This document shows, piece by piece, positions 9,127 to 36,642 of a stretch of 64,000 nt of DNA. The notes under the pieces were generated by a model that searched no databases, was not told where the DNA came from, and was given only the letters and a program-made list of their open reading frames with translations. Position 1 is the stretch's first letter. Each line of letters starts with the position of its first letter. Both the position numbers and the translations under genes were made by a program. The stretch lies in assembly GCA_963795855.1 (NCBI GenBank), contig CAWCIZ010000002.1, positions 96,001 to 160,000 on the forward strand, read 5' to 3'. The stretch comes from Vulcanimicrobiota bacterium (lineage in GTDB: Bacteria; Vulcanimicrobiota; Vulcanimicrobiia; Vulcanimicrobiales; Vulcanimicrobiaceae).

Positions 9127-9213
9127 CGTAGCCTCGCTTGTTCCCAAGTCTGTACGCAAGGGTAACGAGGTTTCGAGGCGTGTCGGTTCGCAGGCGAGCG
9201 CTGCCCGATGGTC

Positions 9214-9795: not shown

Positions 9796-9845
9796 GGTAG
9801 GTAGATAGCCTATCGCTTTCTTACCCGGTCTCGCAATACCCCGGA

Positions 9846-11665: not shown

Positions 11666-11720
11666 CGTCCTATCGTAGGCGCTCGCGCCGGTCGGCGTAA
11701 GGCGCACCTTTACCATGCCG

Positions 11721-12284: not shown

Positions 12285-12621
12285 CGACCAGCTCCTTTTT
12301 TACGAACCTACGCCATTAGGATTGGCGAACGAAAGGGCGTTCCAGCCTAAGTCTTGGTCCTATGCACGTCAACTTGCACCGCCGCCAAATGGGATGACGT
12401 AATCATAATGCGGTCCGATCGTCCCACTCGGACGTAGTCCAAAACGGCTATATAAAGCCGAGCGATGCTAGCAATAGTGATTCAGGTATTGGGTAAACGC
12501 CCCATCTGCAGATGATACGCCGGCCATGCGCGCGGGCGGCGCGCACCGCGTTATGCTCTTTGAAGCACAGCGCTGCTACGGAAGCAACTGTGTATATCAC
12601 CACCTCTAAGGACGTGAGGCG

Positions 12622-12774
12622 ATGGAGTACACCAAACCGGAAATCATGACCTCGTATGCAGTGATCGATCTGTATACATCAGCGTCGGGCTTTGCCTCGA
12701 CTCCGACTTGCACCGGCTCGTTCGACGACAACGGCATCGGCGCAAACTGCGACGACGGCGGATCGTACGGCTAA
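12622..12774 (+). CDS. Putative RiPP precursor peptide P1 (50 aa)
   Basis: MEYTKPEIMTSYAVIDLYTSASGFASTPTCTGSFDDNGIGANCDDGGSYG; AAGGA/GAGG upstream; own terminator; leader shared with P2 and P3. Confidence 0.88.
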   Translation: MEYTKPEIMTSYAVIDLYTSASGFASTPTCTGSFDDNGIGANCDDGGSYG

Positions 12775-12794
12775 CCGGCCGATACAAACGCCTT

Positions 12795-12831
12795 GAAGCC
12801 CTCCGCGCGCCCGCGGAGGGCTTCCTTTTTT
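12795..12831 (+). terminator. Intrinsic terminator after P1
   Basis: GAAGCCCTCCGCG-cgcc-CGCGGAGGGCTTC followed by a T tract. Confidence 0.9.
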
Positions 12832-12952
12832 ATAGTCCATATAACGGCCGACGGATGAGCCGTAGGAAGCTCGGAATCTGAGTACGACGCGCGTAGGCCC
12901 AGGGGCGGCGCGCGATTTACACTAAAAGCGGACACCGCTGCAGGAGGAAACC

Positions 12953-14190
12953 GTGTGGAGCACGTCTAGCGCGGCACGGGCTACGGTCGCTCGTCTTTTG
13001 GCGCCGCATACGATCGAAGAGTTCGCGCAGCGCTACTACGAGCGCGCGCCGCTGTACGTCGATCGCAGCGGCCGCGATGGCGTCTATTCACCTTACTTCA
13101 GCCTAAACGAGCTGGAGCGCGTTCTCTACGGCAGCGAGCTGCGTACGAAGGACGTCCGTCTGGTTCGCGACGGTTTGATGCAGCGCGTCGAGAGTTATAC
13201 CTTCTCGCGTTCCACCCGGAAAGCGGATGAAAAAAAGCCGCCCAGCGACGTCATCGACCACGATAAACTCAGCGTCCTTTTTGCGGCCGGCTGTACCGCG
13301 GTCTTCGATGCGTTGGACACGCATTCGATTACGTTGTCGAACCTGTGCCGCGAACTCGAAGCGTTTTTCGGCCACCGCGTCAATCCGAACGTTTACCTGA
13401 CGCCGGCGGGGAATCAGGGATTTGCGCCGCATTACGACACGCACGACACGCTGATACTGCAGATCCACGGCACCAAGCACTGGCGAATCTATGGTTCGGC
13501 ATTCGAGTCTCCCGCTCGACGACCAGCAGTACGACAAAAAAACGCACGCGCTGCCGGAGATTCTCTTCGAAGCCGACATGAAGCCCGGCGACCTGCTGTA
13601 CATTCCGCGCGGCTTCATGCACGAAGGCAAAGCAAACGCGGAACTCTCCCTTCACGTCACGCTCGGCGTGCACGCGGGTCGATGGGCGAATGTGGTGGCC
13701 GACGCAGTCGAGGCGATCGCCGAACGGGATCTCCTCTGGCGCAAATCCGCGATTCATGAAGCAACGGACGCCGAATTGGCGGAGATTCTTTCCCGGCTGA
13801 CGCCGGACGACTTGCGTCAAGCGCAACAGCGCATCGATCGGCGTTTCCGGACCCAGCGCAAAAATCGAGCTCGAGGGGCAGTTGCAGCAGATTGCGGCGA
13901 TCGGCGAATTATCGGCCGACTCGTTCGTCCGGCAGCGCGCGAACATCGTCTATGAGTTGCAGTCCGATGAGAAAAGCACGCACCTTTCCTTCTCGAGAAA
14001 AACGCTCACGTTCGGGCCGCAAGCGGCTGCGGTAATCCGCGAAATCGGCGCGCGCTCCGGCGTGCAGGTCGCCGAGCTGCTGCAGCACGACGAAAAGGCG
14101 CTCGGCGTCGTTCGCAAACTGATCCTCGAAGGATTCGCAGTGCAAGTTGCGCCCTCGGAAGTGCAGGGCCGCCCGGGAGCCGTTGCCTAG
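12953..14190 (+). CDS. JmjC/cupin 2OG-Fe(II) oxygenase (ROX/YcfD/NO66-like), two apparent frameshifts
   Basis: NVYLTPAGNQGFAPHYDTHD...GTKHW...PGDLLYIPRGFMH...SLHVTLG across ORFs 12953-13759, 13491-13955, 13882-14190. Confidence 0.88.
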
Positions 14191-14301
14191 TCCCGGCGTG
14201 CGTCACTCCCGGTATGCCCACGTCGCGATGGGTGAAAGTACCCACGCCTCCGTCGCCCGCGAGCGGGTGCGGATTCGCCCGTTTGGCGCTAGGATGAACG
14301 G

Positions 14302-18449: not shown

Positions 18450-19780
18450 TTAGTCGGTGGAAATGGTACCAAGTACCGGACGGCCATACAGGCTTTCGAC
18501 TCCGGCAACGGTGCGGATACGTGGATCCGTTACTTCGAGGAGGAACGCAAGCCCGAACGCGATGATAATGAAACCCGCGAGCGAACCGAAGATTGCGAGC
18601 ATCGAACGCTTATCGAGCGTTTGCGTCGCCATCTGCGCATGGTCGACCACGGTGACCGACCCGATGTCCGCTTCCTGCGCGGTCGTCGCGAGCGTGTCCG
18701 TATACCGCGAGGCCAGCGCCTGATATTCCGTTACGAGGAGATCGCGCTGACGACGCAGATCGCCGAGCTTCACACCCATGCCCGGAACCGCTTGCAAGTG
18801 ATCTTCCGTCTGCGATATCTGCGAATCGATCGCGTCCAGACGCGCCCGATCCGCCGCGAGTTTGGCGTCTATCGTGCCTTTCGACGACAACGCAGACGCG
18901 TACGTGGGGCTGAACGTCGTCGAAGAGGCTACGGCGGCTTTCTCTGCTGCAGCCAGTTCGCTCTTCTCCTGCGCAATCTGCGCCTTCAGACCCGCTAGGC
19001 CCGGATACGTTCCTTTGAACTGGGAACGAACGAGCGCGAGTTGCGCTTCATCGTTCGATTCCTGCGTGCGCAGGCTTCTGATAGTACGGATCGCTGGTGG
19101 TCTTCTCTTCATGCACGATTGGCGCGATTTCCGCTAGGTGGCGGGATTCGGCGCCGGCTTGTGCTTCGTCGCCGACCATTTCCGCTTGGAGGTTGTCGCG
19201 CTGTGCCTGCAATCCGAGGATCTGCTGCGCCAAAAACTTGAGCGGCGTCGGAATCCGCATTGTAGGGATCTTGAATCGTCGCCTTTTGCAGGTTTTGATC
19301 GACTTGCTCGATTTCGCCGCGCTTCTTCTTCAGTTCGTTTTGCAGATAGCCGGAAACCACGGTGAATCGCGTTGATGCGATCTGGCGATAGTAGTTGGAA
19401 AGTTCGACCGCTGCGGCGTTCGCCGCCCTGACGGCGATTTTCGGCGAACGATCCGAGTATGTAATCGGCATCACGTTGGAGCCGAAGTTCACGTGCGCCG
19501 TCAACTTCGTCTGGATTACCGCCAGCGGCTCGTCCAAGCGAAGATCGCGGCGAATGCCCTCGAGCACGTTCGTGCTCGTTGCAAGCGTCTGCAGATCGAT
19601 GCCGGTGGCAACGGGTGCAGCGCCCGCGCGCGAACTTATCGCGAGTACTTCCGAGGTAGCCGAATACTGCCGCGGCGCCGTCTTGAAAAGCAGGGCAGCC
19701 ACGACCACGCCGAAGACGACGACGTATGCGATGAGCCACCGCCGGCGCTTTAGAATATCAAGAACAGTCGAAAAGTCCAT
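18450..19780 (-). CDS. Polysaccharide co-polymerase (Wzz/GumC-like), frameshifted near 19110-19230
   Basis: ILKRRRWLI plus TM, coiled coil, C-terminal TM and DPRIRT...PVLGTI. Confidence 0.85.
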
Positions 19781-19792
19781 AGCGTTCTACTT

Positions 19793-21104
19793 TCAGCCAG
19801 CACTGGCAAGGGAAATGGAGTCGGCAATGGCGGCGCGGCCGATGCCGCGATACACGAGGCCCGCCGCGGCCACGCGTTCCGGATCCAAAAGGTTACGCCC
19901 GTCGACGACGAGCCTGCGGCGCAGGCGCGGCGCATATTGCGCTGGTTCGATCGATGCGAAGATCGGCCAGTCGGTGAGCACGACGAGCGCATCGGCATCG
20001 GCGGCCGCGAGCGGAGATCCAAGCACTTTGCAGGGCACGTGAAGCGGCAGCGCGTGAACGCCCGGGTCGTACGCCTGCAGCACGGCACCGCGCGCCGAGA
20101 GATCGTCGATGATGCGAAGGGCGAGAGAGTCGCGCACGTCACTGGTCCCGGCCTTGAAAGCAAGACCCCAGATTCCGATGGTGCGCCCTGCGAGCGATCC
20201 GAGCTCGGTCTCCAACTCTTTGACGACGACTTTGGGCTGCCGGTCGTTCACCTCGAGTATCGCGGACAAGAGGGTGCGTCCCGCTTGAAACTCGCCGGCG
20301 ACGTGCCGCAAACTCTTGACGTCCTTTTCGAAGCACGGGCCGCCGAAACCGATACCGGGATTGAGAAAGAGCGATCCGATTCGACGATCGTAGCCGACGC
20401 CGCGAAGCACTTCGTCCGCGTTCGCGTCTGCGCTCTGACAGAAGTTGGCGACTTCGTTTGCAAAACTGATCTTCAGCGCCAGAAACGCGTTGGACCAGCC
20501 CTTGATCAGTTCGGCCTCGCGCAGTCCCGTGACGACGATCGGCCATTGAAGCGGCTCGAACAAGCGCGCGTACGCAATCGCTGCGGCGTGGTCATTGCAC
20601 GCCGATGACGATCCGATCGGGATGCAGGAAGTCGTGAACCGCCGTGCCTTCTCGCAGAAACTCGGGATGATAAAGCACCGTGTGCTTGCCCTGCAGCCGC
20701 TTGACGACCATGTCGCTGGTCCCAGCCGGCACCGTGGAGCGCAGAACGACGATCGCCGACGGCGGCAGTTTGGCTGCGATAATCGCATCGATTGCGGCGT
20801 TCAGTCCGCGCAGATCCGCGGAGCCGTCGTCGGCCGAAGGCGTTCCGACGGTAAGCACCAGGAAGCGCGCGTCGGCGGCGGCGCGGGCAAAATCGTCGAG
20901 GAACGATATGCGGTTCTCCGCCAGATGTTTATGCAGCGCTTCGCTCAGCCCGGCTTCTTGATACGGCGTCACGCCGGCGCGCAAACCGGCGATGCGGTCG
21001 CGCAAAACGTCGTAGCCTCGGATTTCGCAGCCGAGTTCCGCTAGCCCGATGGCCGATGCCATGCCGACGTATCCGGTTCCGACGATGCAAATTTTACTGT
21101 TCAT
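19793..21104 (-). CDS. ugd: UDP-glucose 6-dehydrogenase (frameshift near 20595)
   Basis: IVGTGYVG, STVPAGT, PEFLREG, GFGGPCFEKD, GLAFKAGTSDVRDS. Confidence 0.92.
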
Positions 21105-21111
21105 GCGGTTA

Positions 21112-21720
21112 CTAGAATGCTCCATTAGCCGATATGACGGCCGTGAACGTGCGAGCGAGAAGGATGCCGTCGGTAATCGGCGAGGCGCTTCTGATGTAGT
21201 CGAGATCGAGCAATGTCGCTTCGGGCCTGGCAAGGGGGACGTTGGACCGATCGCTGATCTGCCACAGACCCGTGATGCCGGGTTCGACTAGGTGGCGAAG
21301 ATGCTGCCAGTTGTCGTATTGCTGAACGATGAACGGCATTTCAGGACGCGGCCCGACGAGCGACATGTCGCCGCGGATGACGTTGACGAGCTGCGGCAGT
21401 TCGTCGAGAGACGTCTTGCGCAGCCACTTGCCGACTCGCGTTATGCGCGGGTCGCCGGCATAGCTCGGGGAGACGCCGTAACCGCAGTTTTGCTTCTTCA
21501 TCGTTCTGAATTTGTAGATCGTGAAGGGGCGCTCGAAACGACCGACTCGCCGCTGTTTGAAGATGACGGGGTACCCATCTTCCAGTGCGATTGCGATTGC
21601 GCACATCAGCAATATCGGAAGTGCGATACACAGCGCGACCGCCGCAATGCCTGCGTTGAGGATACGGCGGACGCGCATGTATACGCGCTTCTCCCGGTAC
21701 ACGAGCGGAGCGATCGTCAC
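21112..21720 (-). CDS. Priming sugar transferase (Bac_transf family)
   Basis: [48 protein letters not shown]. Confidence 0.95.
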
Positions 21721-21721
21721 T

Positions 21722-22801
21722 TTAGAGACGTCCTCCGGGGAGTATGAAGCGAAGCCAGATGACGTCTTGGAAGAACTGACGCCAATCGATCTTGTGGCCT
21801 TCCGGTACGAACACGACGTCGCCATCCTCCAGTGCGGGGTTGGAAGACAGATCGCCGTGCTGCATGCGCGTGATATCGTACGAGGTCGTCACGCCGCGAT
21901 GCCGGATCATGATGTCTCGCAGGTTGGCCCATTTGTTCGGGCCGCCGGCAAGGTAGATTGCGCTGACCAGCGTGAAGTCGTCTTTGAGCGCAATCTCGCC
22001 CGACGAGTTCACGGCCCCCATGACTTGAATGTGTTCTTCGGACGGGATCGTCAAGCTGTCGCCGGAGTGTGCGGCGGCTGAGAACTCAGGGCTTCCTTCA
22101 GCAATTTGCTCGAGTTGCCCGTCGCGGCGCAGCAGTACTTGATGCGATGCCGAGGCGGTGATGCCGCCGAGTTGATCGATTGCGGTGGACAAGGGCTGAT
22201 CCGGGCTCAAGTATGCCGTTCCGGGGTGCAGCACCGCGCCTTTGACGTTTACGGCTAACGGCCGGTTCGCAAACGCGATGCTGTCGCCGGGCAGCAGCGT
22301 GGGGCCGGCGTCGCCGGCGCTTTGCAACGACTGCGCGTCGAACGGTCCTAACGCCATTCCGTTGCGAATGATCCGGATTTTGCTCGTGTCGCCCGCACTC
22401 TGATCGAGTAAACATTTGCAGGCTGCTTGAACGTCCGTCAAAGCGCTGACGAGTGTGTCGCCCGGCCGATACGTAATCGTACCGCCGGGGCCGCCCACCA
22501 CGAACATGTCGCTCGATTGCGATACCAGTGTGACGTCGACGGCCGGAAAGCGCATGTAATTCGCCAAACGGCCTTGAATGCGCGTTGCAAGCTCGGATTC
22601 GCTGGCGCCTTGCGCGGGTACCGCGCCGACGAGCGGCATCGAAACTCTGCCCTCGGCATCCACGGTCGCTTGCGTCGCGAGCTCGGGGTGATTGTAGACG
22701 GATATCTGGACTTTGTCTCCCGGATGAAGCGCCGCTTGTGCGGCGGCCGTAGCCAGGAGCAAAAGCGCGAGCGTGCCGGATGCGATACGCCGGATGTTCA
22801 T
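21722..22801 (-). CDS. Polysaccharide export protein (Wza-like, SLBB repeats)
   Basis: Signal peptide; LHPGDKVQISVYNHPEL...VDAEGRVSMPLVG; repeated SLBB segments. Confidence 0.9.
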   Translation of the reverse strand: MNIRRIASGTLALLLLATAAAQAALHPGDKVQISVYNHPELATQATVDAEGRVSMPLVGAVPAQGASESELATRIQGRLANYMRFPAVDVTLVSQSSDMFVVGGPGGTITYRPGDTLVSALTDVQAACKCLLDQSAGDTSKIRIIRNGMALGPFDAQSLQSAGDAGPTLLPGDSIAFANRPLAVNVKGAVLHPGTAYLSPDQPLSTAIDQLGGITASASHQVLLRRDGQLEQIAEGSPEFSAAAHSGDSLTIPSEEHIQVMGAVNSSGEIALKDDFTLVSAIYLAGGPNKWANLRDIMIRHRGVTTSYDITRMQHGDLSSNPALEDGDVVFVPEGHKIDWRQFFQDVIWLRFILPGGRL

Positions 22802-22819
22802 AGTCTTCTTCCTACGTCG

Positions 22820-23809
22820 TTACGGGGTATTGAAAACGGTAAGCGGTGAAACGCTGAAGTCGATTTGAGCCGGAAGCTTCGGCGCCTGCGATTGCCCTTG
22901 CGACTGATAAACGCTGATGTAGTTTTGGTCCGCGTCGATCAAGAGCGCTTGATATTGCGCCTTTCCGTAGAAATTGCCGGGCGCGACGCACGTGTAATCT
23001 TTGCTGGTTACGACGAAGCCCACGACGTTGAAGCCCGGATATTTGGTCGGATTGTTATCCAAATGCGTCAAGAACGCGACGAAGTATTCGGTGGTGCCCG
23101 CAGCGGGCGTCCACGTCACGTACGCGGACCCGACGGGGCAGCCGTTCGTTGCGTTTCCGGCAAACGAAACCGTCACCGGCGATTGCCTCGGAAGCGACAC
23201 GGCCGGATTCAAAATCGTGAAGTTCACGCTGCCGCCCGGCGGGTTGTTCACCTTGGCGTTGTACGTGCCGCCATGGTTCGAGGAATCGGCGTTCGAGCGA
23301 TAGCCGATGCCGAGCGTCGTCGTCGACGCAGACGTGTTGAACGCCTTGCCGCCGAGCCAAAGCGGATTCGTTACGTTTGTTTTATACGGTGCCGGCAATG
23401 ACGGGTTGTCGTTGGAGCACTCGCATAAGCCCGCAGCATCGCGGAAGGTCATCAGGAATCCGATCGCCGGATTCGAACCTTTACCGGATCGTGCGACCGT
23501 CGCGGTGCCGCCCGTTATCTGGAAAACGAACGGTCCGGATATTTTCGGCGTTACCGATGACGCTGCGGCTTGCGGAGCGCGAGTAACGACGCTCGACGTC
23601 GCGGTGAAACCGGCGTCGAGTTCGAGATCGGAAAGTAAATCGGATCCCGTCAAACTGAAGAGATCGTCAGGCGACATATTTTGCGGCGTCTGTCCGGAAC
23701 TATTTCCACCCGGCACAGGGCCGTTCGGTGTTCCGCCACCACCGCCGCCGCAGCCTGCGAGTGCAAGACCTGCGGCGAGTACAATGACGAGAAGAGCGCG
23801 CTTCTGCAT
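22820..23809 (-). CDS. Hypothetical lipoprotein
   Basis: Lipobox LAGC followed by a poly-Gly linker. Confidence 0.75.
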   Translation of the reverse strand: MQKRALLVIVLAAGLALAGCGGGGGGTPNGPVPGGNSSGQTPQNMSPDDLFSLTGSDLLSDLELDAGFTATSSVVTRAPQAAASSVTPKISGPFVFQITGGTATVARSGKGSNPAIGFLMTFRDAAGLCECSNDNPSLPAPYKTNVTNPLWLGGKAFNTSASTTTLGIGYRSNADSSNHGGTYNAKVNNPPGGSVNFTILNPAVSLPRQSPVTVSFAGNATNGCPVGSAYVTWTPAAGTTEYFVAFLTHLDNNPTKYPGFNVVGFVVTSKDYTCVAPGNFYGKAQYQALLIDADQNYISVYQSQGQSQAPKLPAQIDFSVSPLTVFNTP

Positions 23810-23931
23810 AGCAATTTCCCTCGGTTTCTCCGGCGGCGAAATGATGCACAAATGATAAACTAATGGCACCGTGCGCAATAAGAGCGCCCTGCACCAGGGT
23901 TATCCACGCAGTTGCCGGGTGTGCTATGAGC

Positions 23932-24321
23932 CTATCGGCGCACGTGCAGGTGATACTGCAGTGCTAACCGCAGGCGAAGAACGAGCGCTTTTGCGCTCGA
24001 ACGGACGTCCGAATGGATTACGCGTCCGTGCCGACGTACTTCGGTGACCGTACCTATGACGTCACAAGGTTCGACATGCTCCACCTGCCCGCGACTTGCA
24101 TCGCCGGCGGTCAGCACTTCGCCGCTGCCGATTCCGATGACACGGTGCGCGACCAGAACGTCGTTGTGCGGAAATACGACGACGTCGCCGAAACGCGGCG
24201 ACCGATGCGGTGATACGAGGAGATCGTCGCCTTCGAGGATCCCGGGCGACATGCTGCCGCCGCGCAAACGCAGGCACCACGGCCGCGTTGGGCGCGTCAT
24301 GGCGAGGACGTCTTTGAGCAT
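23932..24321 (-). CDS. S24/S26-family peptidase, candidate leader peptidase
   Basis: RGGSMSPGILEGD, FGDVVVF, VAHRV; ATG 24321 lies 2 nt after the kinase stop. Confidence 0.85.
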   Translation of the reverse strand: MLKDVLAMTRPTRPWCLRLRGGSMSPGILEGDDLLVSPHRSPRFGDVVVFPHNDVLVAHRVIGIGSGEVLTAGDASRGQVEHVEPCDVIGTVTEVRRHGRVIHSDVRSSAKALVLRLRLALQYHLHVRR

Positions 24322-24323
24322 CG

Positions 24324-25148
24324 CTACGCTACGGCGGTTTGCGCGTCCATCGTGAGGCGCTGCACGGCGTCGGCGGTATCGTCGGGAGCCCCAAGCGTCA
24401 GCGCATAGATGCGCGACTTCGATAACGCGGCGATGACCCGATCGACGATACGTAGGTGATTCTTGTCGATCGTCGTCTGCACTTCGCTGCCCACGGCCAG
24501 GAAGATCGCCTCGGAGAGCGGCAACGGGCGAGCGTGTGCGTGTCGCCCGCGCCCGATGATGAAGAAATATGAAGCTCGATGCGCCGAAATACCCCAAGCA
24601 CGGTCGAACGTGCGCGCGGGATCGACGGCCTCCCAATCGGTTTCCAAACCGTTCAAGGCCAGCAGGCGGCGCGTGCCGCTGCGAATCGAGAACAGACGCG
24701 GAAAGGATTCCACTTGTTCCGTCGCCGTGTTCACAAGCGCGAACTCGTCCGACAGGGGCATGTTGTCGTCGCTGCGCAGCATGAGCGAAAGCGATGTGGT
24801 GCTTTTCCCGCTGGTCGTCGGTCCGACGATTACGGCCGCTCTATCGCCAATAGCGACGGCGCCGGCATGAAAGACGACCAGCTCTTGCCGCAGGCGAAAG
24901 ACTCGAGCATTGATGGCGAGCATCGCACGGCCTTCGATTGCGGCCGGGGAAAGGCGAAGCGCGTTCGACGTTCCGAGATCGTCGAACGCCCGCACGAATT
25001 CGTCGCCGATGAGCACGCCAGCGGTGCGTCCGCGGGAGATGATGTACGCCGTAAGAAGCGGCTCGCACACACTGCTGTAGTCGAGCATCCGCGCATAGCG
25101 GCGTTCGATAAGATCCATGACGCGCTCGTCATCGCACCCGATCTGCAC
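24324..25148 (-). CDS. HPr kinase-related P-loop kinase 1
   Basis: VFHAGAV, Walker A GPTTSGKST, LSDEFA; start uncertain. Confidence 0.85.
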   Translation of the reverse strand: MQIGCDDERVMDLIERRYARMLDYSSVCEPLLTAYIISRGRTAGVLIGDEFVRAFDDLGTSNALRLSPAAIEGRAMLAINARVFRLRQELVVFHAGAVAIGDRAAVIVGPTTSGKSTTSLSLMLRSDDNMPLSDEFALVNTATEQVESFPRLFSIRSGTRRLLALNGLETDWEAVDPARTFDRAWGISAHRASYFFIIGRGRHAHARPLPLSEAIFLAVGSEVQTTIDKNHLRIVDRVIAALSKSRIYALTLGAPDDTADAVQRLTMDAQTAVA

Positions 25149-25191: not shown

Positions 25192-25449
25192 CTAAGCGAC
25201 TTCGCGGACCAAGCCCTGTTCGAGGAACACCGTCATGATTTCGGAAACGTCCTGTCCGAGATCATGACCATCCGCGTCATACCGAACGCGCAGATACTCT
25301 TCCAACTCGGTGTGCGTTTTGCCCGAGCAGTTGCGCAGCAAATCGGCCGCCGTCTGATTGACGACATGAACCTTTTCCCGCGCAGGATCGTACACCAAGG
25401 TCTCCACGCCGACCTCACGCATTTCGATGCCGTCAATCGCTTGATACAT
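25192..25449 (-). CDS. PqqD-family RiPP recognition element (RRE)
   Basis: 85 aa; ETLVYDP...VHVVNQTAADLLRNCSG...LRVRYD...DVSEIMTVFLEQGLV, typical PqqD pattern. Confidence 0.9.
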   Translation of the reverse strand: MYQAIDGIEMREVGVETLVYDPAREKVHVVNQTAADLLRNCSGKTHTELEEYLRVRYDADGHDLGQDVSEIMTVFLEQGLVREVA

Positions 25450-25452
25450 GTT

Positions 25453-25584
25453 TTACTCCGATATGATGTTGCATTGGGGATTAGACGGGCCGGTTTCGAA
25501 ACACATTACCGATGCGAAGCCCGACACGTCGCTGAACAATACGCCAACGTCATAGGACCGGATAATCTCCGGCCGGTTGTACAT
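25453..25584 (-). CDS. Putative RiPP precursor peptide P3 (43 aa)
   Basis: MYNRPEIIRSYDVGVLFSDVSGFASVMCFETGPSNPQCNIISE; 8 nt after the P2 stop and 3 nt before the RRE start. Confidence 0.88.
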   Translation of the reverse strand: MYNRPEIIRSYDVGVLFSDVSGFASVMCFETGPSNPQCNIISE

Positions 25585-25592
25585 CGTCTTAG

Positions 25593-25691
25593 TCATCCGA
25601 TTCCGCCCAAACTGCCGAAATCGCCGGCGGCGCTGGCAAACAAGGCGGCCAAATCGAATGTGGCTACGAGGACCGGGCGTGCATACTGCAT
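25593..25691 (-). CDS. Putative RiPP precursor peptide P2 (32 aa)
   Basis: MQYARPVLVATFDLAALFASAAGDFGSLGGIG; GGAAAGGA RBS upstream. Confidence 0.82.
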   Translation of the reverse strand: MQYARPVLVATFDLAALFASAAGDFGSLGGIG

Positions 25692-25791
25692 GTAGGCTGA
25701 TCCTTTCCAGAGGTGTTTTTTGATTGTAGCCGCTGCAGCCGCTGCTCCAAAGTGCAGGAAGACACGCGGGCTCTTATGCCTTGAGTGCTAC

Positions 25792-26595
25792 CTACACATA
25801 AGCCAAGGTGCCCACGCGCCGCGCGTGCTGAATCGACATCATGAACAGCGCAAGGGCCAAAGGTATTCCTACCACCGCGAAGGCGGCCAGAACGAGCACG
25901 TCGCCGCGTATCACGCCGAAACCGGCGCCGTGCAAGATCGCTGCCCGCAGCGCGCTCAGGCCGTGCGTGATTGGGAAGACCATGGAGACGACTTTGAGCG
26001 GCAGCGGCAGAACCGCCACGGGGAAGTACACGCCGCCGAGCAGATTCGTCGCGCTGCTGACTATGCCCAAGGCCCCGGTGCCTTTTTTGAACGCGATAAC
26101 GGAGGCGGCCGCGGAGATTCCTATGGGCGAGATGGCGAGCATCGACAGCCCCAGGGCGAGCAGAGCCGTCGGCACATTGGCATGGTGGAGGTTCACGCCG
26201 AACACCGCAGCGCCAATCACCAGGATGAGCACCGTCTGCACGGCGGTGAAAACGAACGCCGACGTTGCTGAGGCGAGGACGACCGCCGGAACGCTGGCCC
26301 GCGTAACCAGAATCGCCTCGATCGTTCCCGACACCTGGTCGCGCTGGATAGCGCTCGCGAATGACGTAAGCGCGACGGACTGGAACCGCGCGAAAACGAT
26401 GCCGATGAGCACGAATTCGAAATACTGGCCGTGCACTGCCTTGAGCGCGCCGGCGCTCGAGCCGAACGTGCGCCCCACGAAAAACATCATCGCGCACATG
26501 ACGAGCACGGACGAGAGCTGCCCGAAGATCGAAAACTTCGACACGGTTTGATACGCCCAGTCGCGGCCGATGAACGCCGACAAAATTTTGGTCAT
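25792..26595 (-). CDS. ABC-2 type permease
   Basis: GTIEAILVT, GGVYFPVAVLP...PITHGLSALR; TGATG coupling to the ATPase gene. Confidence 0.9.
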   Translation of the reverse strand: MTKILSAFIGRDWAYQTVSKFSIFGQLSSVLVMCAMMFFVGRTFGSSAGALKAVHGQYFEFVLIGIVFARFQSVALTSFASAIQRDQVSGTIEAILVTRASVPAVVLASATSAFVFTAVQTVLILVIGAAVFGVNLHHANVPTALLALGLSMLAISPIGISAAASVIAFKKGTGALGIVSSATNLLGGVYFPVAVLPLPLKVVSMVFPITHGLSALRAAILHGAGFGVIRGDVLVLAAFAVVGIPLALALFMMSIQHARRVGTLAYV

Positions 26596-27383
26596 CAGGT
26601 TCCTCTCGCGACGCTTCGGAAATAGCCGAACAGCGGCTGTTCCCGCGTGCCCGCGGGCGCCTTTGCTTCGATCTCCAGCGGGGTCCCGACGGCCGAAACG
26701 CGATGCTCGTGCAGGATGGCCATGCGGTCGCACATCGACCATGCTTCGTCGAGCTGGTTGGTGGCGAGCAGAACCGTTTTGCGCTCGGCTACGACAAGCC
26801 GGTCGCGGACGCTTTGACGAAATTCGACGGCCGCGATCGGATCGAGTGCTTTCGTCGGCTCGTCCAACAGCAACACCGGGGGATCTGCGAGCATCGCCCG
26901 GATCAGCGCCAGGCGCTGCTTCATACCGGTGCTGTAGGAACGGACGCTGGAATGCAGGCGGTCCGCCAGCCCCAACCACTCCGCAAGTTCGAAAATGCGC
27001 TTGCGCAGTGCCGTTCTTCCCAAGCCCTGCAGTTTGCCAAAGAACTGTAAGTTGTCCCACGCGGTCAGGCGCATGTAATACGCGCGTTCGTCGGAGCTGC
27101 AGATTCCGATGCGTACGCGCACTCGAGCCGACTGGCGCGCGACGTCGTAGCCGAGCACTCGCACCGTGCCGGAATCCGGAACCAAAAGGGTCGAGATGAT
27201 CTTTAGAAGCGTGGTTTTTCCGGCGCCGTTCAAACCCAGCACGCCATAACACTCGCCGGCACGCATCGTCAGCGTCACGTCTTCGAGTGCCGTGCGCTTT
27301 TCCGCGCGGCGGAACATCTGGCGCATCCCCTGATCGATGGGATACTGCTTACAGACGTTGCGGATTTCGATGGCGTCAGGCAT
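26595..27383 (-). CDS. ABC transporter ATP-binding protein
   Basis: GLNGAGKTT, YSTGMKQRL, LLLDEPT. Confidence 0.95.
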   Translation of the reverse strand: MPDAIEIRNVCKQYPIDQGMRQMFRRAEKRTALEDVTLTMRAGECYGVLGLNGAGKTTLLKIISTLLVPDSGTVRVLGYDVARQSARVRVRIGICSSDERAYYMRLTAWDNLQFFGKLQGLGRTALRKRIFELAEWLGLADRLHSSVRSYSTGMKQRLALIRAMLADPPVLLLDEPTKALDPIAAVEFRQSVRDRLVVAERKTVLLATNQLDEAWSMCDRMAILHEHRVSAVGTPLEIEAKAPAGTREQPLFGYFRSVARGT

Positions 27384-28521
27384 GCGGCAAAAACGGTGAA
27401 ACGGCGCGGCGGAAACCGCCCACGAGCCGCTTCATCAGCTTGGGACGGGCATCGAACTGCGTGAATTCGACGCTCCCGAAATTCTGTTTGAGCAAGTGCA
27501 CGCGATCCGAAAACCGTTCCATCCAAAACAGGCGCATCAGCGTGCGATGGCCGCTTCCGCCGGTAAGGACGCGCGCAACTCCGATATCCGTTACGTAACG
27601 CGAGAGCGTTCCGCCGCGGCGCTCGAGCAGGCGGGAAAGCAGATTCTTGTCCACGGGAGCGTCCAACAGCCACTTCGCGAGTTGCAGCGCGGGCGCCACC
27701 ACCTGCGCCGCGTTCGCTTCCGTGACGCGCTGCTCGAAGACGTCCCAGTCGATTGGCCCGTGCAGCGACTCCGCGATGTCGACAATCCCTCGCAAATGTC
27801 CGTCGAAGCCGTTGCCCCATGCGAGGTGAATGCAGAGATGCAGCAGTTCGTCCTGGGGGTCGAGCCGTCTGCACGGCACTCCGGCGAGGACCACCGGCAC
27901 CGCGCGGTGCCGCATCGCGTCGATATTCAAACGAAACGGGTTGGGCCGCCGGCCGAAGTCCCAGTGGAGTTCGATGCAAAAGCGGCTCGGTTTTCGCGAA
28001 TGCCTGGGCAACTGGTAGTAGTTTTCGAAATACCAACTGCGCCCGTGGGGCGTCGCCTCAGCGTCGTATCCCAGACGCGCCAGCACGTCCTCGGCGAGCG
28101 CAATCTCTTCCCGGCCGAACAGGACGTCGAGATCGCAGAACGCGCGCAGACTGATGTCCCGGTAAAGCGTCTCCGCCAGCGCGACGCCCTTGAGCACGAT
28201 TGGGGAAAGCCCCGCATCCTCGAAGGCGAGAAGCGCCTCGTGCGCCTGCCGCAAGAAGACACTGTTGAGCGCCGAGCGCTTCTGCCGCTGTTCCTGCAGC
28301 TGCTGCACGACCGAATCCGGAACCTTTATCCCACGGCACGATTCTATCGTACGAAGCAGCAGCGGTCCGAAATGATGTTTGGATGCCGTATCGAGCACCG
28401 CTTCCCAGGACTTAACGCCCGCCGCCGCGGCAACCGCGGCATCGGCGTGCGGGCGCAATCGCGCGCACGCGAGGATAAAACGCCACTCCGGCGTCATACT
28501 CTGCGCCAAATTCCGGTTCAC
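27376..28521 (-). CDS. Nucleotidyltransferase family protein (NTP_transf_5-like)
   Basis: IVLKGVALAETLY...RAFCDLDVL, IELHW, LLHLCIH. Confidence 0.88.
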   Translation of the reverse strand: MNRNLAQSMTPEWRFILACARLRPHADAAVAAAAGVKSWEAVLDTASKHHFGPLLLRTIESCRGIKVPDSVVQQLQEQRQKRSALNSVFLRQAHEALLAFEDAGLSPIVLKGVALAETLYRDISLRAFCDLDVLFGREEIALAEDVLARLGYDAEATPHGRSWYFENYYQLPRHSRKPSRFCIELHWDFGRRPNPFRLNIDAMRHRAVPVVLAGVPCRRLDPQDELLHLCIHLAWGNGFDGHLRGIVDIAESLHGPIDWDVFEQRVTEANAAQVVAPALQLAKWLLDAPVDKNLLSRLLERRGGTLSRYVTDIGVARVLTGGSGHRTLMRLFWMERFSDRVHLLKQNFGSVEFTQFDARPKLMKRLVGGFRRAVSPFLPHA

Positions 28522-28538: not shown

Positions 28539-29201
28539 CTAAATCAGGCCGGATCTAACTGCGTGAACTGCCGCTTGCGAGCGCGCGGTGATATTCAGCT
28601 TCGAGAAAATGTGACTGACGTGATTTTTCACGGTCTTGTCGGACAGGCTCAGCTGCTCGCTGATCTCCTTGTTCGAGAGGCCCTGCGCGATCAGACGAAT
28701 GACTTCATTCTCGCGCGGCGTCAAATCGTACATGTGACCGCGGCTGGTCGAGCTGCGGCGGCGCAGCAGTTCGCCGGCGATCCGCGGATCCACGTAGGAA
28801 CCGCCCGCGGCGATGATCTTGAGGGCGCGAATCAGTTCTTTCGGAGCCACGTCTTTGATGATGTAGCCGCTGGCGCCGATGGAAAGCCCCCGCTGCAGCA
28901 CTTCCGGCTGCAATTGCGTCGAGAGCAAACAGACTTTTACGGACGGGGCATCGCGGCGCACGGCCGCCATCGCGTCGTCCATCTTGAGGATTTGTCCGTC
29001 GACGTCGAACACGATCAGGTCCGGCGTGAGGGAGCCGAGCGGAATTTTGTCGATCGCTTCGGCGTCGCCGACGATCTCGAGTTCCGCGTCGGTCGCGAGC
29101 AACTGGCAAAGCGCCTTGGCAAAGATGCCCTGGCCGGCGACCACTACGATGCGCGTCGTCCGCGAAATCGCTTGCGGTGCTTCCAATAGTCCTGCAGTCA
29201 T
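28539..29201 (-). CDS. NarL/LuxR response regulator (orphan, atypical acidic pocket)
   Basis: REC domain (LIVFD, GYIIKD) plus LTPRENEV...KTVKNHVSHIFSKL. Confidence 0.93.
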   Translation of the reverse strand: MTAGLLEAPQAISRTTRIVVVAGQGIFAKALCQLLATDAELEIVGDAEAIDKIPLGSLTPDLIVFDVDGQILKMDDAMAAVRRDAPSVKVCLLSTQLQPEVLQRGLSIGASGYIIKDVAPKELIRALKIIAAGGSYVDPRIAGELLRRRSSTSRGHMYDLTPRENEVIRLIAQGLSNKEISEQLSLSDKTVKNHVSHIFSKLNITARSQAAVHAVRSGLI

Positions 29202-29504: not shown

Positions 29505-30384
29505 GTGCACGACTCAGTACAATACAGAATTGCCGACGTCGACGTCGCGATCGAAGCGCCGGCGTCCATCTTGCGAATCGTGACCGATACATACCGGCGA
29601 TTCCCGATCAGCGCGCCGCGAACAGTGCCGCACGTTAGGGTTCTGGCGGCAATCGACGACGATGGTCACGTGGACATACGCATCGGTGAAAAGCATTATC
29701 AAAACGTCTTCGCCTGGACAGGCCGGGCAACGGTCGGACTGGAGCTCGTCGAACGCCATCATCACCGCCGTGGCACAGCACTCGCGCTTTCTGATCGTGC
29801 ACGCAGCCGCATTGGAACGTGACGGTGAAGCGCTCTGCATCGCCGCTCCCGGACATACCGGCAAGACGCTGCTCACGGCGCATCTTCTCTCACGCGGCTG
29901 GCGCTGCCTGAGCGACGAATACGCGTTCATCGAACCGCTCAGCGGTCAGATCGTGCCGTTTCCGAAGTTGCTGTACGTGCGCTCTTCCTCGCTGCCGCTG
30001 GTGCCGCGCACGTTTCGCAAATGCCTGGAATGCTCGCCGTGGTATGGAATGGGTGAGCGTCCCGGGCTCGTGTTCTCCGGCGTCGACCCGAGCGCCGCGT
30101 ATTCGGAAGACATCTGGTCCACCGGCGCGCGCTTGTCCCGTCTTCTCATGCTCGTGAAACGCAACGCTTCGGGCCCATCCATCAAACCGTGCGCCGGGTG
30201 GTCGATTATCCCGGAACTCAATTCGGTAACGTGGCAGCCGCCGGATCTGCTGGACGGTTTGTCACGCATGGCGGCCGCGCTGCGCGGCGTCGAGGTCGGC
30301 AAACTGGTCGCGGCGGATCCGCTGATGACCGTAAACGCCATCGAACAGTGGGCTGCAACGGAGCCGGCGATCGCGTATGCCTAA
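29505..30384 (+). CDS. HPr kinase-related P-loop kinase 2 (frameshift near 29750)
   Basis: GGAG RBS and GTG 29505; IVHAAAL, APGHTGKT, LSDEYA, PFPK. Confidence 0.82.
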
Positions 30385-30937
30385 TGCGCCGCTTGCGCGC
30401 CCGCTCGCGAAGAAGGCCGAGATGCTCGGCTTCTTGTTTCGTTTGCTGCTTTTCGATCTGTTCGTCGGCTCGCGCGAGGGACTCGTGAAGATTGGCGCGG
30501 GCGTGAGCGCCACCGGCGATGTCAAAGTGCATCTGGGCAAGCGTGTGTTTTTGGGCCGCAGCGGCGTCTTTCAGGGCACCGGAACCGTCAACGTCGGCGC
30601 CGGTACCTACGTGGGGAATTTTTTCGATTTCAATTCACGGGCGAGCATCGAGATCGCGGAGCAGTGCATGTTCGGCAATTTCGTCACCCTGGTCGACAAC
30701 AACCACGGAACCGCCGTGGATCGCGACATGAAAGATCAGCCGTTTGAAGCGAAAGGCATCGCCGTCGGAAGAAATTGCTGGCTCGGCGAAAAAAGCACTG
30801 TGCTTGCGGGCGTTACCATCGGCGAAAATGCAATCGTCGCCGCAGGATCCGTCGTGACGCGCGACGTGCCGGCGAATGCAGTGGTAGCGGGCGTACCGGC
30901 GCGGGTTCTTCGCCTGCGCACGCCGGTTGCGGTGTGA
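30377..30937 (+). CDS. Hexapeptide-repeat O-acyltransferase
   Basis: CWLGEKSTVLAGVTIGENAIVAAGSVVTRDVP...GVPAR. Confidence 0.92.
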   Translation: MPNAPLARPLAKKAEMLGFLFRLLLFDLFVGSREGLVKIGAGVSATGDVKVHLGKRVFLGRSGVFQGTGTVNVGAGTYVGNFFDFNSRASIEIAEQCMFGNFVTLVDNNHGTAVDRDMKDQPFEAKGIAVGRNCWLGEKSTVLAGVTIGENAIVAAGSVVTRDVPANAVVAGVPARVLRLRTPVAV

Positions 30938-30939
30938 CC

Positions 30940-32530
30940 ATGCCCGAGGCGCAAGCCATACATCAGCAGCACACCGCCAAACAAATTTTCCTGAACACGT
31001 TCGCCGGCCTCGCCAGCAGCACGGGCTCGGCTCTGGCGGGCTTGATCGCGACGCCGCTGCTGATTTCGCGCCTCGGCGTCGAGACCTTCGGATTCTGGGC
31101 GGTGCTCACGGCGATGGTGAACTACGCGGGGCTGCTCGACGGCGGTCTGAACAGCACGTTCATGAAGTACATCGCCGAGTACGCTGCGCGCGGCGAACGC
31201 GACCGCATCCGTCAGGTCATCACATTCGGGGCATCGTTCTACGCAGTGTTGGGTTTCGTCGTTGCCCCGATTGCCGCGTATTTCGCGCCTTTCGCCATTG
31301 GGGTGATGCACGTCGATCCGGCTATAGCTCGACAAGGACCCGCCGTATTCGGATGGATAACGCTCTCGCTCTTTCTGACCGGCGGCGCGGCGGCGATTGC
31401 TTCGGTGCTCAGCGGCTTCGGCCAGTCCGCGAATCGTCTGGATGAGCAACTTCTTCAGCCGTACCGTCTTTTCGATCGTCGCCGTCGGTCTCTGTTATTT
31501 CGGTTTCGGATTGACCGGCATGGTATTGGCGACGTTCGCGCAGCTCGCCGTTTTCGCGCTGCTTACCGGAGTGGCGGCGCGGCGGCGCTTCGGATCGCTC
31601 TTCATAGCGCCGTGGCGGTGGGAGCGCAGCGTCATCAGAAATCTTTTCGCGCTCGGGGGTTGGATTCAACTCACGAACGCGTGCAGCACCATCGTCGTCG
31701 AGAGCAACCGGTTTATCATTTCTGCGTTCGTCTCGACGAGCGCCGTCACGTATTTCGAAGTCGCGAGCCGGCTCACGCGCGTTGCCCGATCGATACCATT
31801 CAACTTCATCGTCGCGCTGCTGCCCGCCGTCTCGGCCAGGAACGCCGCCCTTCCGGACGACGAGTTCAACGCGACGTACGTGCGAGCCAGCCGGTACGTC
31901 AACTACGCGACGATTTTTCTCGTCGGCTTCATCATTGCCGCCGGAAAGGTGCTCTCGTTCGCGTGGATCGGAACAATCTATCCGCACATCGGCCTCATCG
32001 TGCTGCTCGTCGGACTTTCATTCATCTTCATCAACGTCACGATGGTCGGGACCACGATGCTCCGCGCGATCGCTCTGGCCAAATACGAAACGTACTATTA
32101 TGCGGTGTGGACGGCTGCCAGCATCGCGCTGATGATGGCAACGGTGCCGTTTTTCGGAATGAACGGCGTGCTCGGCGGTATGGTTGGCGGCGCCGCTATC
32201 GGAGCCGCTTATTTTCTGACTCTGCTCCACCGTCTGCGCGATCTGCCGGCATGGCAGAGCTTTTTCGCATGGGCGCTTCCGCTTGCGGCGGTGGGCAGCA
32301 TCGCGATCGGCGTTACGGCCGCCGTTGCAAACCTGCTCGGAGTGCATGGAAGCAGAATCGCGGCCTGCGGAACGCTGGTCGAGCTTTTGGCCGTTTACTG
32401 CGTGGTTTTTGCCGCCGGAACGTTTGCGTGCCGCTTCTTCAATGGCAGCGACGTCGCGTTGCTCGGACGAATACTTCCGCCTCGTTTTGCGCGGCGGCTT
32501 TCCCGCTACGCGAGCTCGGCTCCAGCGTGA
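30940..32530 (+). CDS. Wzx-type flippase (frameshift near 31430)
   Basis: TPLLISRLGVETFG, multi-TM MOP-family pattern over two frames. Confidence 0.85.
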
Positions 32531-33502: not shown

Positions 33503-35197
33503 CTAGTCGGCCCAAGCCTGGAACGCTTGGTACCGCGGATCCGGAACGAACGCGCCGCTCGCAATGCTTCCGAGCCCGATCGCAGCGAACGGTCCGCCTC
33601 CGTCGTCGCCGTCCCACACGCTTGCATTGACGATGCACGCGATCTGTGGATCGCCGTTCGAGATGCCGTATGCAAGGGACATGTCGCGCGCGGCTACGAG
33701 CGGGTCTTCACCCCATGCGCTCGTGTCGCTGGCGAAACCCGTTTCCGTCAAACAGATCTTCACGCCGGAATCGCCGTTGGAGGCCGCGATGCTTTCCGCG
33801 CCTCGGTAATTCTGCCATTGGTTCTCGTACGTCGGGCCATAATACACGGTCGGGTCGGTCTGCCATGCGAAATTGTGAATTGAGATGCCGTCCCAACACG
33901 TTCCCACGCGGCAGCCGGATGCGTAGATGTTCGACAAATCCGTAAACAGGTTGGTGTGCTGGCCGCCCCCGTTTGCCAAACCCGGTCCGTACACGAAGAT
34001 GCTCGGCGCCGCGGATTTCATCGCGGCGTATCCCGCCTTGAGGAAGGCGGCAATGCCGGCGCCGGTATCGGAATCCATGAACCAGTAGCTTTGGTTCGGT
34101 TCGTTCATCAGTTCCACGTGCGTAATCTGCGGCAGGCCCGAAGCAGCCATTTGCGCGTTGTGCTGAACGATCCAGCGCGCAACCGTTGCAACGTACGTGC
34201 CGTAGTCCGCCGCGCTCGTGAATGCTTTGTTCATCCCGACCGTCGACTGTATGCGCGCGCCGCCGTACTGCAGAATCGTCGGCATCATCGCAATGCCGTG
34301 CTCGGCAAGATGCGTCGAGATGTAATCGTAGCGAGTGAAATCTGCTCCGGTGCCGTCAAGACTTCCGGTCGTTCCGCCCCAGATGTACGAAGCTTGAATC
34401 TCGACGCGCGCGCAGGTTGCTCCGGCATTCGCGACCGCCTGTTCGGCGGAATCGATCAGCGCGTTCTTCACTGCGTCCGGAACGTTCTTGCACGGGTTCG
34501 TCGAGCAATCGCGGACCGTTTGCTCGTTGAGCGTCCACGAGTGGCCCATCACGCAATGCTTGCCCGGGGTCGGCACGATGCCGGTCACCGGCGGCATCGC
34601 AACCGGATTCGCAGTGGTAACACTGAAGGTGGCGCCGTTCGTAGCGACGGTGTACATCACACCCGGGGTACGCCGCCAGCGTACGCCCACGCTATTCGCG
34701 CCGACGCCGCCGTAGGCGTAAACCGTCGCGCCCGGCGAGACGCTTGCGGTGGTCGCAACCGGACCCGACGCAAGATGCAGCACGAGCGGAGCATCGTACG
34801 GAATCGTTCCGCCATTGGTAACCGGCGTGCAGATGGACGGACCGACGACCGCGCAAGCGGAGAGTACGCCCACCGATGCCGGTGGCGAGCCGGAACCGGA
34901 TCCCGGCGTGGCAGTGGGGTCTGGCGACGGAGGAACGGGCGGAGGCGTCGGCATCGGAGTCGACGTCGGCGACGGCGTGGAATGAGACGGCGAATTTGAA
35001 CCCGGCGTTGCGGTTGCACTCGGCGTTGGGGACGAACCCGGAGACGCGGTCGATCCCGGAATAGGCGTAGAACCGGTTTTCCCGGGGTTTTGACCTGTAA
35101 CGGACGGGACTACTCCGCCTCCTCCGCCGCCGCCGCAGGCGCACAGCGTCGCAGACGCCGCAAAGAAGCAGATCGCATAGACAACGTTTATCCGCAC
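33503..35197 (-). CDS. Lipoprotein glycoside hydrolase, clan GH-A (GH39/GH5-like), paralog 1 with Pro/Ser/Thr linker
   Basis: Lipobox LCAC; VELMNEPN acid/base; ICLTETG nucleophile. Confidence 0.82.
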   Translation of the reverse strand: MRINVVYAICFFAASATLCACGGGGGGGVVPSVTGQNPGKTGSTPIPGSTASPGSSPTPSATATPGSNSPSHSTPSPTSTPMPTPPPVPPSPDPTATPGSGSGSPPASVGVLSACAVVGPSICTPVTNGGTIPYDAPLVLHLASGPVATTASVSPGATVYAYGGVGANSVGVRWRRTPGVMYTVATNGATFSVTTANPVAMPPVTGIVPTPGKHCVMGHSWTLNEQTVRDCSTNPCKNVPDAVKNALIDSAEQAVANAGATCARVEIQASYIWGGTTGSLDGTGADFTRYDYISTHLAEHGIAMMPTILQYGGARIQSTVGMNKAFTSAADYGTYVATVARWIVQHNAQMAASGLPQITHVELMNEPNQSYWFMDSDTGAGIAAFLKAGYAAMKSAAPSIFVYGPGLANGGGQHTNLFTDLSNIYASGCRVGTCWDGISIHNFAWQTDPTVYYGPTYENQWQNYRGAESIAASNGDSGVKICLTETGFASDTSAWGEDPLVAARDMSLAYGISNGDPQIACIVNASVWDGDDGGGPFAAIGLGSIASGAFVPDPRYQAFQAWAD

Positions 35198-35336
35198 AAG
35201 AAACCCTCAGGTGCGGAGGCTCGACTCTTAAGTAGTCGGCAATAACGTGCGGTTCTGCAGCGTCAGCGCGGGCGCCGGAACGGCACCGACGGTAATACTC
35301 TTGTAAAGCCGCGGGCGAGGCGCGCTGTTGCGATGG

Positions 35337-36530: not shown

Positions 36531-36593
36531 TAATGCCTCCGCAACGGTGCTTCGACTACACGGCGCCTGCGCACCTCGCCGCGGCGTGTAACG

Positions 36594-36623
36594 AAAAAAA
36601 AGCCGGGCTGACTGCCCGGCTTT
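36594..36623 (-). terminator. Intrinsic terminator after GH paralog 3
   Basis: AAAGCCGGGC-agtca-GCCCGGCTTT followed by a T tract on the minus strand. Confidence 0.85.
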
Positions 36624-36642
36624 CCCATGTTCGGCTTCTGCG

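Follow-up and report, generated by a model that had tools for sequence, protein, structure and literature searches.

Short YxxP-leader peptides as probable precursors of an LPP-like phosphopeptide pathway in Eremiobacterota

Two very short tandem genes, P2 and P3, precede a stand-alone RRE gene in the 64,000-nt stretch of a Vulcanimicrobiota genome analyzed here (the window; table 1). On the basis of sequence comparisons, they probably encode precursors of a cyclase-free phosphopeptide pathway that resembles the one producing linear polyphosphorylated peptides (LPPs) and is typical of class-level relatives in the Eremiobacterota. The enzyme set of the LPP type is already known; what is new is an Eremiobacterota precursor family with a leader of its own.

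Table 1. Features of the window, and two further precursors encoded elsewhere in the same genome (G000).
Feature	Position	Strand	Remark
P1 precursor	12622..12774	+	50 aa; leader of the same family; Phe+1, Ser+3 and Cys pair in core
JmjC (NO66/MINA-like) 2-oxoglutarate oxygenase gene	12953..14190	+	directly after P1; PF08007 on two pieces
Lipoprotein, Wza-type exporter, WcaJ-like gene	21112..23878	-	start of polysaccharide locus
Soluble S24/S26 peptidase, archaeal/ER signal-peptidase type (SEC11)	23932..24327	-	family scans
HPr-kinase-like kinase	24324..25148	-	TIGR04352 E 3.3e-9, far below family cut-off
Stand-alone RRE (PqqD family)	25192..25449	-	PF05402 E 9.8e-9
P3 precursor	25453..25596	-	47 aa; predicted cut after Val-Ser-Gly
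P2 precursor	25593..25691	-	32 aa with YxxP leader; cut predicted after Ala-Ala-Gly
Shine-Dalgarno-like GGAAAGGA of P2	25701..25708	-	9 nt 5' of P2 ATG
Promoter-like element TTTG ... TA[CG]AAT	25723..25751	-	between permease and P2
ABC-2 permease	25792..26592	-	PF01061
ABC ATPase	26595..27383	-	PF00005
NTP_transf_5 nucleotidyltransferase-like protein	27376..28521	-	PF14907 E 1e-47
NarL/LuxR-type response regulator	28539..29201	-	family scans
Second HPr-kinase-like gene	29505..30384	+	TIGR04352 E 1.3e-18
P4 precursor	G000:C2:565104-565274 (L129)		held-out leader profile
P5 precursor	G000:C1:250961-251122 (L130)		held-out leader profile

A first-pass annotation had placed two ORFs directly 5' of the RRE gene, and both are there, on the minus strand, with the sequences it gave. 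The P3 frame does end 3 nt before the RRE start codon (25453 versus 25449), and the ribosome-binding site proposed for P2 corresponds to GGAAAGGA. The 8-nt gap described between the two genes holds for an inner ATG of P3 at 25584 only. The likely start lies four codons earlier, at 25596, and overlaps the P2 stop codon. In G229, G369, and L152, the P3 orthologues are without the inner Met, and their first codon lies at the P2 stop or next to it; P3 is therefore most likely a 47-aa peptide translationally coupled to P2, judging by these alignments. Likewise, "unannotated" describes the two genes correctly in that no name is shown for them, but the protein collection already holds both as called proteins without a name (P0017, 47 aa, and P0066). 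The promoter-like element is found upstream of P2 in the five aligned loci (5/5) with a variable spacer, and by eye also in L152 and L154. This pattern was drawn up after viewing the alignment, and a consensus promoter scan of 25300-25900 made no call, the element included; we regard it as a candidate internal promoter of P2.

On comparative evidence, P2 and P3 are real genes under purifying selection. Stops and frameshifts were looked for in the orthologous regions and none breaks either gene: the two frames are open, in tandem, and at the same place in six of six distinct loci (G229, G369, G037, G038, L152, which equals L153, and L154). Codon-level conservation is clear against the close orthologues of G229 and G369, with pN (0.15-0.30) well below pS (0.59-0.69). 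The contrast is weak against the distant G037 and G038 (pN 0.46-0.53, pS 0.56-0.87), and strong when these two are compared among themselves (pN 0.12-0.13, pS 0.61-0.72). A leader profile built solely from 97 peptides of other genomes ranked P2 first and P3 second among 65,851 six-frame segments of the genome (E 3.9e-5 and 0.0029), and the family occurs in other genomes. Very short ORFs in an assembly rich in frameshifts could be chance ORFs or decayed remnants, and P2 falls short of its closest orthologue in length and lacks the Cys pair that its closest orthologues have. Against the profile ranking, the six open loci, and the pN values of the close orthologues, this reading is scarcely credible. 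Conserved leaders with variable cores, the RRE, kinase, and peptidase context, codon-level conservation, and Shine-Dalgarno-like sites in relatives make the layout that of RiPP precursors, as had been proposed, and this assignment of P2 and P3 is well supported at the sequence level.

The leader family extends across the phylum. Of 16 relative loci that were fetched, 11 yielded, by pattern and position, the 16 peptides of the seed. Of 401 phylum genomes, the resulting profile matched 57 at E<=0.05 and 47 at E<=0.001, and single genomes had up to eight scattered precursor matches. An S26 peptidase profile matched 51 of the 401 genomes. Forty-two of the 47 precursor-positive genomes also hold the peptidase (hand count, assuming the same genome draw for both searches, to which their identical family tallies point), and the five without a peptidase match are draft assemblies with 90-550 contigs. 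G014, G027, G059, G266, G290, and G349, flagged as unpublished, are counted in these tallies but excluded from the peptide set. The latter comprises 97 distinct precursors of 40 genomes (hand count), extracted from 76 fetched loci; since the genomes are related, counts within the family are not independent samples.

In this set, the leader Tyr and Pro are invariant, and YxxPx[VIL] is present in 97/97 relatives as well as in the five precursors of the present genome. Ser or Thr occupies −13 in 96/97. The predicted cut lies 21 residues from the leader Tyr and follows [AV]-x-[GA] in 90 peptides (Ala or Val at −3 in 94, Gly or Ala at −1 in 93), and conservation drops there from 81/97 at −1 to at most 20/97 for any residue at +1. 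A Shine-Dalgarno-like word precedes 86 of the 97, and the start codon lies within six codons of the Tyr in 95. The cores range from 5 to 35 residues, with a median of 12. All contain Ser, followed in frequency by Cys (83 cores), Gly (76), Thr (57), Asn (46), and Asp (37), and 58 have exactly two Cys. The predicted cores of P2 and P3 count nine residues with Ser at +4, and 21 residues with Phe+1, Ser+3, and a Cys pair, respectively. Pfam and NCBIfam scans of P2, P3, and 86 family members returned two single chance-level matches and no family, and the named ones among 70 homologues in the protein collection are all "hypothetical protein." As gene callers and NCBIfam assign no family, about one in eight of the sampled phylum genomes appears to hide an unrecognized RiPP system. 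A weak leader match, G038:C90, was not recovered. Literature searches, covering few subscription papers, found no article on this Eremiobacterota leader family, and the cassette is not mentioned in the RRE-Finder paper (PMC7470986) or in PMC12710340 according to keyword searches.

The operon runs in the order NTP_transf_5, ABC ATPase, ABC-2 permease, P2, P3, RRE, HPr-kinase-like kinase, and S24/S26 peptidase. The RRE is the sole one found in the genome and has the lasso protein TfuB1 as its best PDB match (E 3.5e-4), LppB (9x8z) reaching only E 0.36. The kinase, whose start is uncertain (the frame is open to 25232), has the His, the Walker A Lys, and Asp-Glu, the second acidic residue of His-Lys-Asp-Asp being Glu. 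Ser25, His61, and Asp76 of the peptidase are invariant in 13/13 aligned relatives, and its best PDB matches are SEC11A/C. Searching the collection with the S26 protein alone gave no confirmed relative. NTP_transf_5 and the S26 peptidase form one fused protein in 11 of 13 relatives examined. The response regulator lies upstream of the operon and also adjoins the cluster in G037 and G038. The second HPr-kinase-like gene diverges from it and occupies two frames here and a single one in G229; the majority of relatives' clusters have two kinases, and in most clusters an ABC-2 exporter adjoins the RRE. There is no radical SAM gene in the cluster. In total, the genome holds one RRE, one S26 peptidase, one NTP_transf_5 protein, and five precursors. 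As it is 86% complete, a further RRE or a cyclase could be encoded elsewhere.

Loci with a 72-80% identical RRE belong to records of Candidatus Eremiobacteraeota. The RRE alignment search returned five genome loci and 16 metagenome loci, including L143, and in eight weaker metagenome loci that were inspected, the 450 nt upstream contained no YxxP peptide. L143 is a deltaproteobacterial record with a radical-SAM cassette, where, with labels assigned by eye, positions 8001-14175 carry an unrelated set of RRE, radical SAM gene, HPr-kinase-like gene, and gene for a large secreted protein. Three same-genus genomes (L020, L021, and L022) have a lone PqqD-like gene by a ribosomal-protein-S15-like gene, with no RiPP cluster in the 3 kb covered.

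LPPs are encoded by lppA-K-B-S-D-N clusters of Paenibacillus alginolyticus and other Bacillota. According to the part of the description available to us, an HprK-like kinase polyphosphorylates Ser3 of the core only, leader cleavage by an SpI-like peptidase is RRE dependent, and the LppN transferase was silent in a heterologous test, the end product being unknown (Popov et al. 2026, PMC13381572). As far as that part goes, the P2/P3 cluster shares with LPP a stand-alone RRE, a kinase of the HprK-like type, an archaeal-type signal peptidase, an NTP transferase, an exporter, the absence of a cyclase, a YxxP leader, a Ser near the core start, and a capsule-locus setting, and the Eremiobacterota clusters likewise contain one to three precursors. 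The differences concern first the host, LPP being described as restricted to Bacillota, and the leader. The LPP leader, YxxPxVLxHQxIxFET, is cut 16 residues after the Tyr, that is, five residues closer to it than predicted for the 21-residue leaders ending in [AV]-x-[GA]. The motif Px9Fx[T/A] (YxxPxVLxHQxIxFETxxS) is found in 0/97 relatives and, by eye, in none of the five precursors of the genome. LPP has an MsbA-like exporter, one kinase, and a 45-aa LppA core, whereas the present clusters have a separate ABC ATPase and ABC-2 permease, usually two kinases, a peptidase usually fused to the NTP transferase, and cores of 5-35 aa that mostly contain Cys. Many stand-alone precursors and JmjC satellites complete the picture in Eremiobacterota, with no such report in the covered text on LPP. 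A keyword search of the available LPP supplements returned no Eremiobacterota entry, and in the rows covered no precursor is determined for the non-Bacillota peptidase clusters (PMC13381572). Judged by its gene content, the Eremiobacterota system would work like LPP, from which it departs in exporter type, in host phylum, and in the leader motif.

The position of Ser in the cores points to the predicted modification site. Sixty-four of the 97 cores have Ser at +3 or +4, whereas 2000 within-core shuffles gave 28 +/- 4 (maximum 45). When each cluster contributes a single core, the proportion is about 37/56 against 17 +/- 3. Counted from the predicted cut, Ser is at +3 in 34 cores and at +4 in 33. 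These counts may be inflated, as the family search profile took in core columns; among the 16 seeds found without the profile, 10 have Ser at +3 or +4 (hand count). Ser+4 is present in 7/7 P2 orthologues and Ser+3 in 7/7 P3 orthologues, those of the window counted. Together with the precedent of LPP core Ser3, this excess and these fixed positions support the proposal that Ser is the kinase target. The more specific site put forward, F-[AG]-S after a conserved Gly common to P2, P3, and a third peptide, which is most likely P1, stands as regards the Ser itself. In contrast, P2 orthologues have Met or Tyr in place of the Phe, Ala substitutes for the "conserved Gly" in 12/97, and the Ser lies at +4 in P2 versus +3 in P3 from the predicted cut. 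Moreover, 33 of the 97 cores lack Ser at both positions, their first Ser being as late as +14 or +18 in four cases; the kinase therefore cannot read one fixed position.

These cores, the nearly invariant Ser/Thr at −13 of the leader, and the two kinases of most clusters would also suit the same pathway with another modified residue: another or several Ser/Thr, or two kinases acting in sequence, adding phosphate and then polyphosphate. Similarly, the peptidase could cut where LppA is cut, 16 residues after the Tyr (the LPP register). However, the Phe-x-[Thr/Ala] of the LPP type is missing at that register in 97/97, conservation runs on to the Gly/Ala at −1 before collapsing, and the position of Ser is fixed within each of the P2 and P3 orthologue sets. 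We thus consider a different site or cut unlikely.

From the genes, their conservation and co-occurrence, and the catalytic residues, we infer the following chemistry for the preferred pathway, each tailoring step being less certain than the pathway as a whole. The RRE would bind the YxxPx[IVL] leader, as suggested by the LppB and lasso B1 structures. By analogy with LppK and in agreement with the Ser statistics, the HPr-kinase-like enzyme would (poly)phosphorylate the core Ser, at +3 in P3 and +4 in P2. The RRE would then present the leader to the S26 peptidase, which would cut after [AV]-x-[GA], 21 residues from the Tyr; this site is deduced from the conservation boundary and from the −3/−1 rule of signal peptidases. 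By analogy with PsmN, the NTP_transf_5 protein may add a nucleotide or sugar to the phosphoserine, and fused peptidase-nucleotidyltransferases may couple leader removal to this capping. The Cys pair of the core probably closes a disulfide loop, and the ABC-2 system would export the short core.

The YxxPx[LIV] motif is that of lasso RREs, and taken with TfuB1 as the best PDB match, the acidic residues in the cores of P1, P4, and P5, and a Transglut_core3 gene in four of five other genomes tested, it raises the question of lasso peptides matured by a cyclase and a B2 peptidase encoded elsewhere. PF13471 (lasso B2) has no match in G229 or in the 86% of the present genome that is assembled, and no RiPP-linked cyclase was found in the cluster or in that assembly. 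Its single full Asn_synthase match, a 626-aa protein, is encoded on a different contig, where no RRE was found. This protein starts with MCGIAG, as is typical of glutamine-dependent AsnB, and looks like an ordinary AsnB. At the predicted cut, Thr occupies −2 in one of 97 peptides, and the cores are short (median 12, minimum 5). The B2-like genes of G021, G060, and G392 belong to a different cassette, with no cyclase-sized gene in the ORF listing. On the lack of a B2 match and of a RiPP-linked cyclase in the 86% complete assembly, and on the Thr count, we rejected the lasso reading as very improbable. The different cassette (L144:7495-12275 in G021, L145:4337-8328 and 12765-14224 in G060, and L147:6772-11197 in G392) associates an RRE, a 325-340 aa gene, one or more glycosyltransferase-like genes, Transglut_core3 (B2-like), and an NTP-transferase-like gene. 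No YxxP precursor lies nearby, and the labels beyond RRE and B2 were assigned by eye.

Several other known systems share parts of this organization. Kinase-tailored lasso peptides (paeninodin PadeK, ThcoK/SyanK, and pseudomycoidin PsmK/PsmN), in the part of the source covered (PMC9266682), also rely on an RRE, a Ser kinase acting on the linear precursor, and a nucleotidyltransferase-like enzyme. They differ from the present clusters, which have a serine peptidase, no cyclase or B2, and the Ser near the N-terminus of the core instead of at its C-terminus. Phospeptin of Ca. Eudoremicrobium is likewise a phosphorylated RiPP, from the same phylum, but is made by the CylM-like EmbM and not by HPr-kinase-like kinases; no RRE or S26 peptidase is named for it in the text covered (PMC9259500). 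PqqD and HPr-kinase-like pairs also characterize the HPr-rel-A (TIGR04352/TIGR04353) and SynChlorMet (TIGR04249) cassettes, with weak profile matches here: for HPr-rel-A, the scores (36 and 67 vs 200 bits, and 25 vs 35 bits) are far below the curated cut-offs.

The three remaining precursors of the genome, P1, P4, and P5, lie outside the operon. The held-out profile ranked them third to fifth, P4 and P5 weakly (E 1.9 and 3.4). P1 is followed by a terminator-like hairpin at 12795-12824 and has pS 0.58 and pN 0.18 against its G369 orthologue. All three directly precede a JmjC gene of NO66/MINA type, with the HxD...H triad where checked. The gene linked to P1 is in pieces in the assembly and the triad is present; an intact paralogue matches NO66 (E 2e-28). 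The four genes of this type found in the genome all lie at these three loci, and in the assembly frameshifts interrupt two of three JmjC genes as well as the second kinase gene. Six more precursor-JmjC pairs were identified in G229, G369 (two), G179, G402, and G037, and all nine JmjC-paired precursors have Phe+1. Conversely, JmjC is the next gene for none of the 87 relatives without Phe+1 in the fetched loci, some of which end early. Phe+1 is not sufficient: P3, its orthologues, and one GNAT-followed peptide have it without an adjacent JmjC gene. The JmjC enzyme would hydroxylate this subfamily, either on Phe+1 or on Asp or Asn near the Cys pair. Both have precedents in other RiPP classes: in the parts of the sources covered, the gene for CzlI of curacozole, an Fe/2-oxoglutarate enzyme of JmjC type, adjoins its precursor and CzlI converts Phe to Tyr (PMC11575548), and CanE of canucin, also an Fe/2-oxoglutarate enzyme, catalyzes Asp beta-hydroxylation with the help of an RRE (PMC9266682).

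In G402, an RRE, a precursor, a JmjC gene, and two kinases form one run of genes. At least 18 loci of at least 10 kb in distant relatives, by comparison, contain precursors with no machinery gene detected. For the stand-alone precursors of the most distant family sampled, there was no constant neighbour (rough ORF call; four neighbours scanned with Pfam). As tested genomes hold one to three RREs, shared machinery is the simplest reading for the present genome and G229, with one each; the single RRE/peptidase set would then also serve P1, P4, and P5. A broader model, to which we give a little less than even chances, is a genome-scattered combinatorial RiPP library: one set of RRE, kinase, signal peptidase, and nucleotidyltransferase would mature up to eight precursors, and satellites would add tailoring by an NO66-like JmjC on Phe+1, sulfotransferases, GNAT, or other 2OG oxygenases. 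The products would be short, disulfide-looped, hydroxylated, capsule-linked peptides typical of the phylum, with a phospho-(glyco/nucleotidyl)-serine.

Additional genes were observed at satellite loci. The P4 and P5 loci each encode a 360-390 aa protein without a Pfam match, and these two proteins share about 36% identity. Two sulfotransferase-like genes are also present at the P4 locus. Genes of a similar kind were seen close to JmjC-linked precursors of G229 and G369. Stand-alone precursors at L072:5098-5889, L084:5484-6239, L101:5339-6124, and L122:4438-5226 are located beside a 2OG-Fe dioxygenase, DUF6065 (twice), or GNAT gene, possibly further satellite tailoring enzymes.

For an LPP-type pathway outside Bacillota, the family provides some 100 natural substrates in which leader and core are clearly delimited. 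Natural peptidase-transferase fusions combined with very short cores should make it easier to address two questions left by LPP, the end product and the role of the NTP transferase; if the proposed pathway is true, the fused enzyme could reveal the step that was silent in LPP. Cluster-based mining would often miss scattered precursors.

The cluster sits inside a polysaccharide locus: the peptidase gene is followed by a lipoprotein gene and then by polysaccharide-export genes. This segment (21112..23878) is syntenic in G037, G038, G229, and G369; its WcaJ label is our presumption from recognition of the ORF, without a family scan. Such a setting, here as in LPP, the cores as short as 5-9 residues, and, in the covered part of the LPP study, no end product detected in the native host (PMC13381572) would fit peptides that stay intracellular, as phospho-acceptors or regulators of polysaccharide synthesis under a kinase and peptidase switch, or as glycan primers. 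This is improbable given the dedicated ABC-2 exporter next to the RRE in most clusters and the highly diverse, multi-copy cores, more than half of them with exactly two Cys, which suit secreted products. For the exported phosphopeptides that we favor, our guess is a link to capsule or EPS production, the peptide being secreted as a signal or associated with the matrix. The 352-aa lipoprotein directly after the peptidase (22820-23878), which has no Pfam family and is syntenic in the same four genomes, might bind or display the peptide after export.

Several genes of the window are split between frames: the second kinase (29505-30384), the JmjC gene (12953-14190), and genes resembling a chain-length regulator (18450-19780), a sugar dehydrogenase (19793-21233), and a flippase (30937-32530). 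This suggests assembly indels and not decay. Also in the polysaccharide locus, positions 33503-38127 encode three tandem paralogous secreted proteins of about 480-560 aa with a common NEPN motif. The two that were scanned have no Pfam match; judged by the motif, all three are presumably glycoside hydrolases. Finally, a short Arg/Tyr/Ala/Pro/Val unit is repeated many times in tandem in an ORF at 7569-9026.
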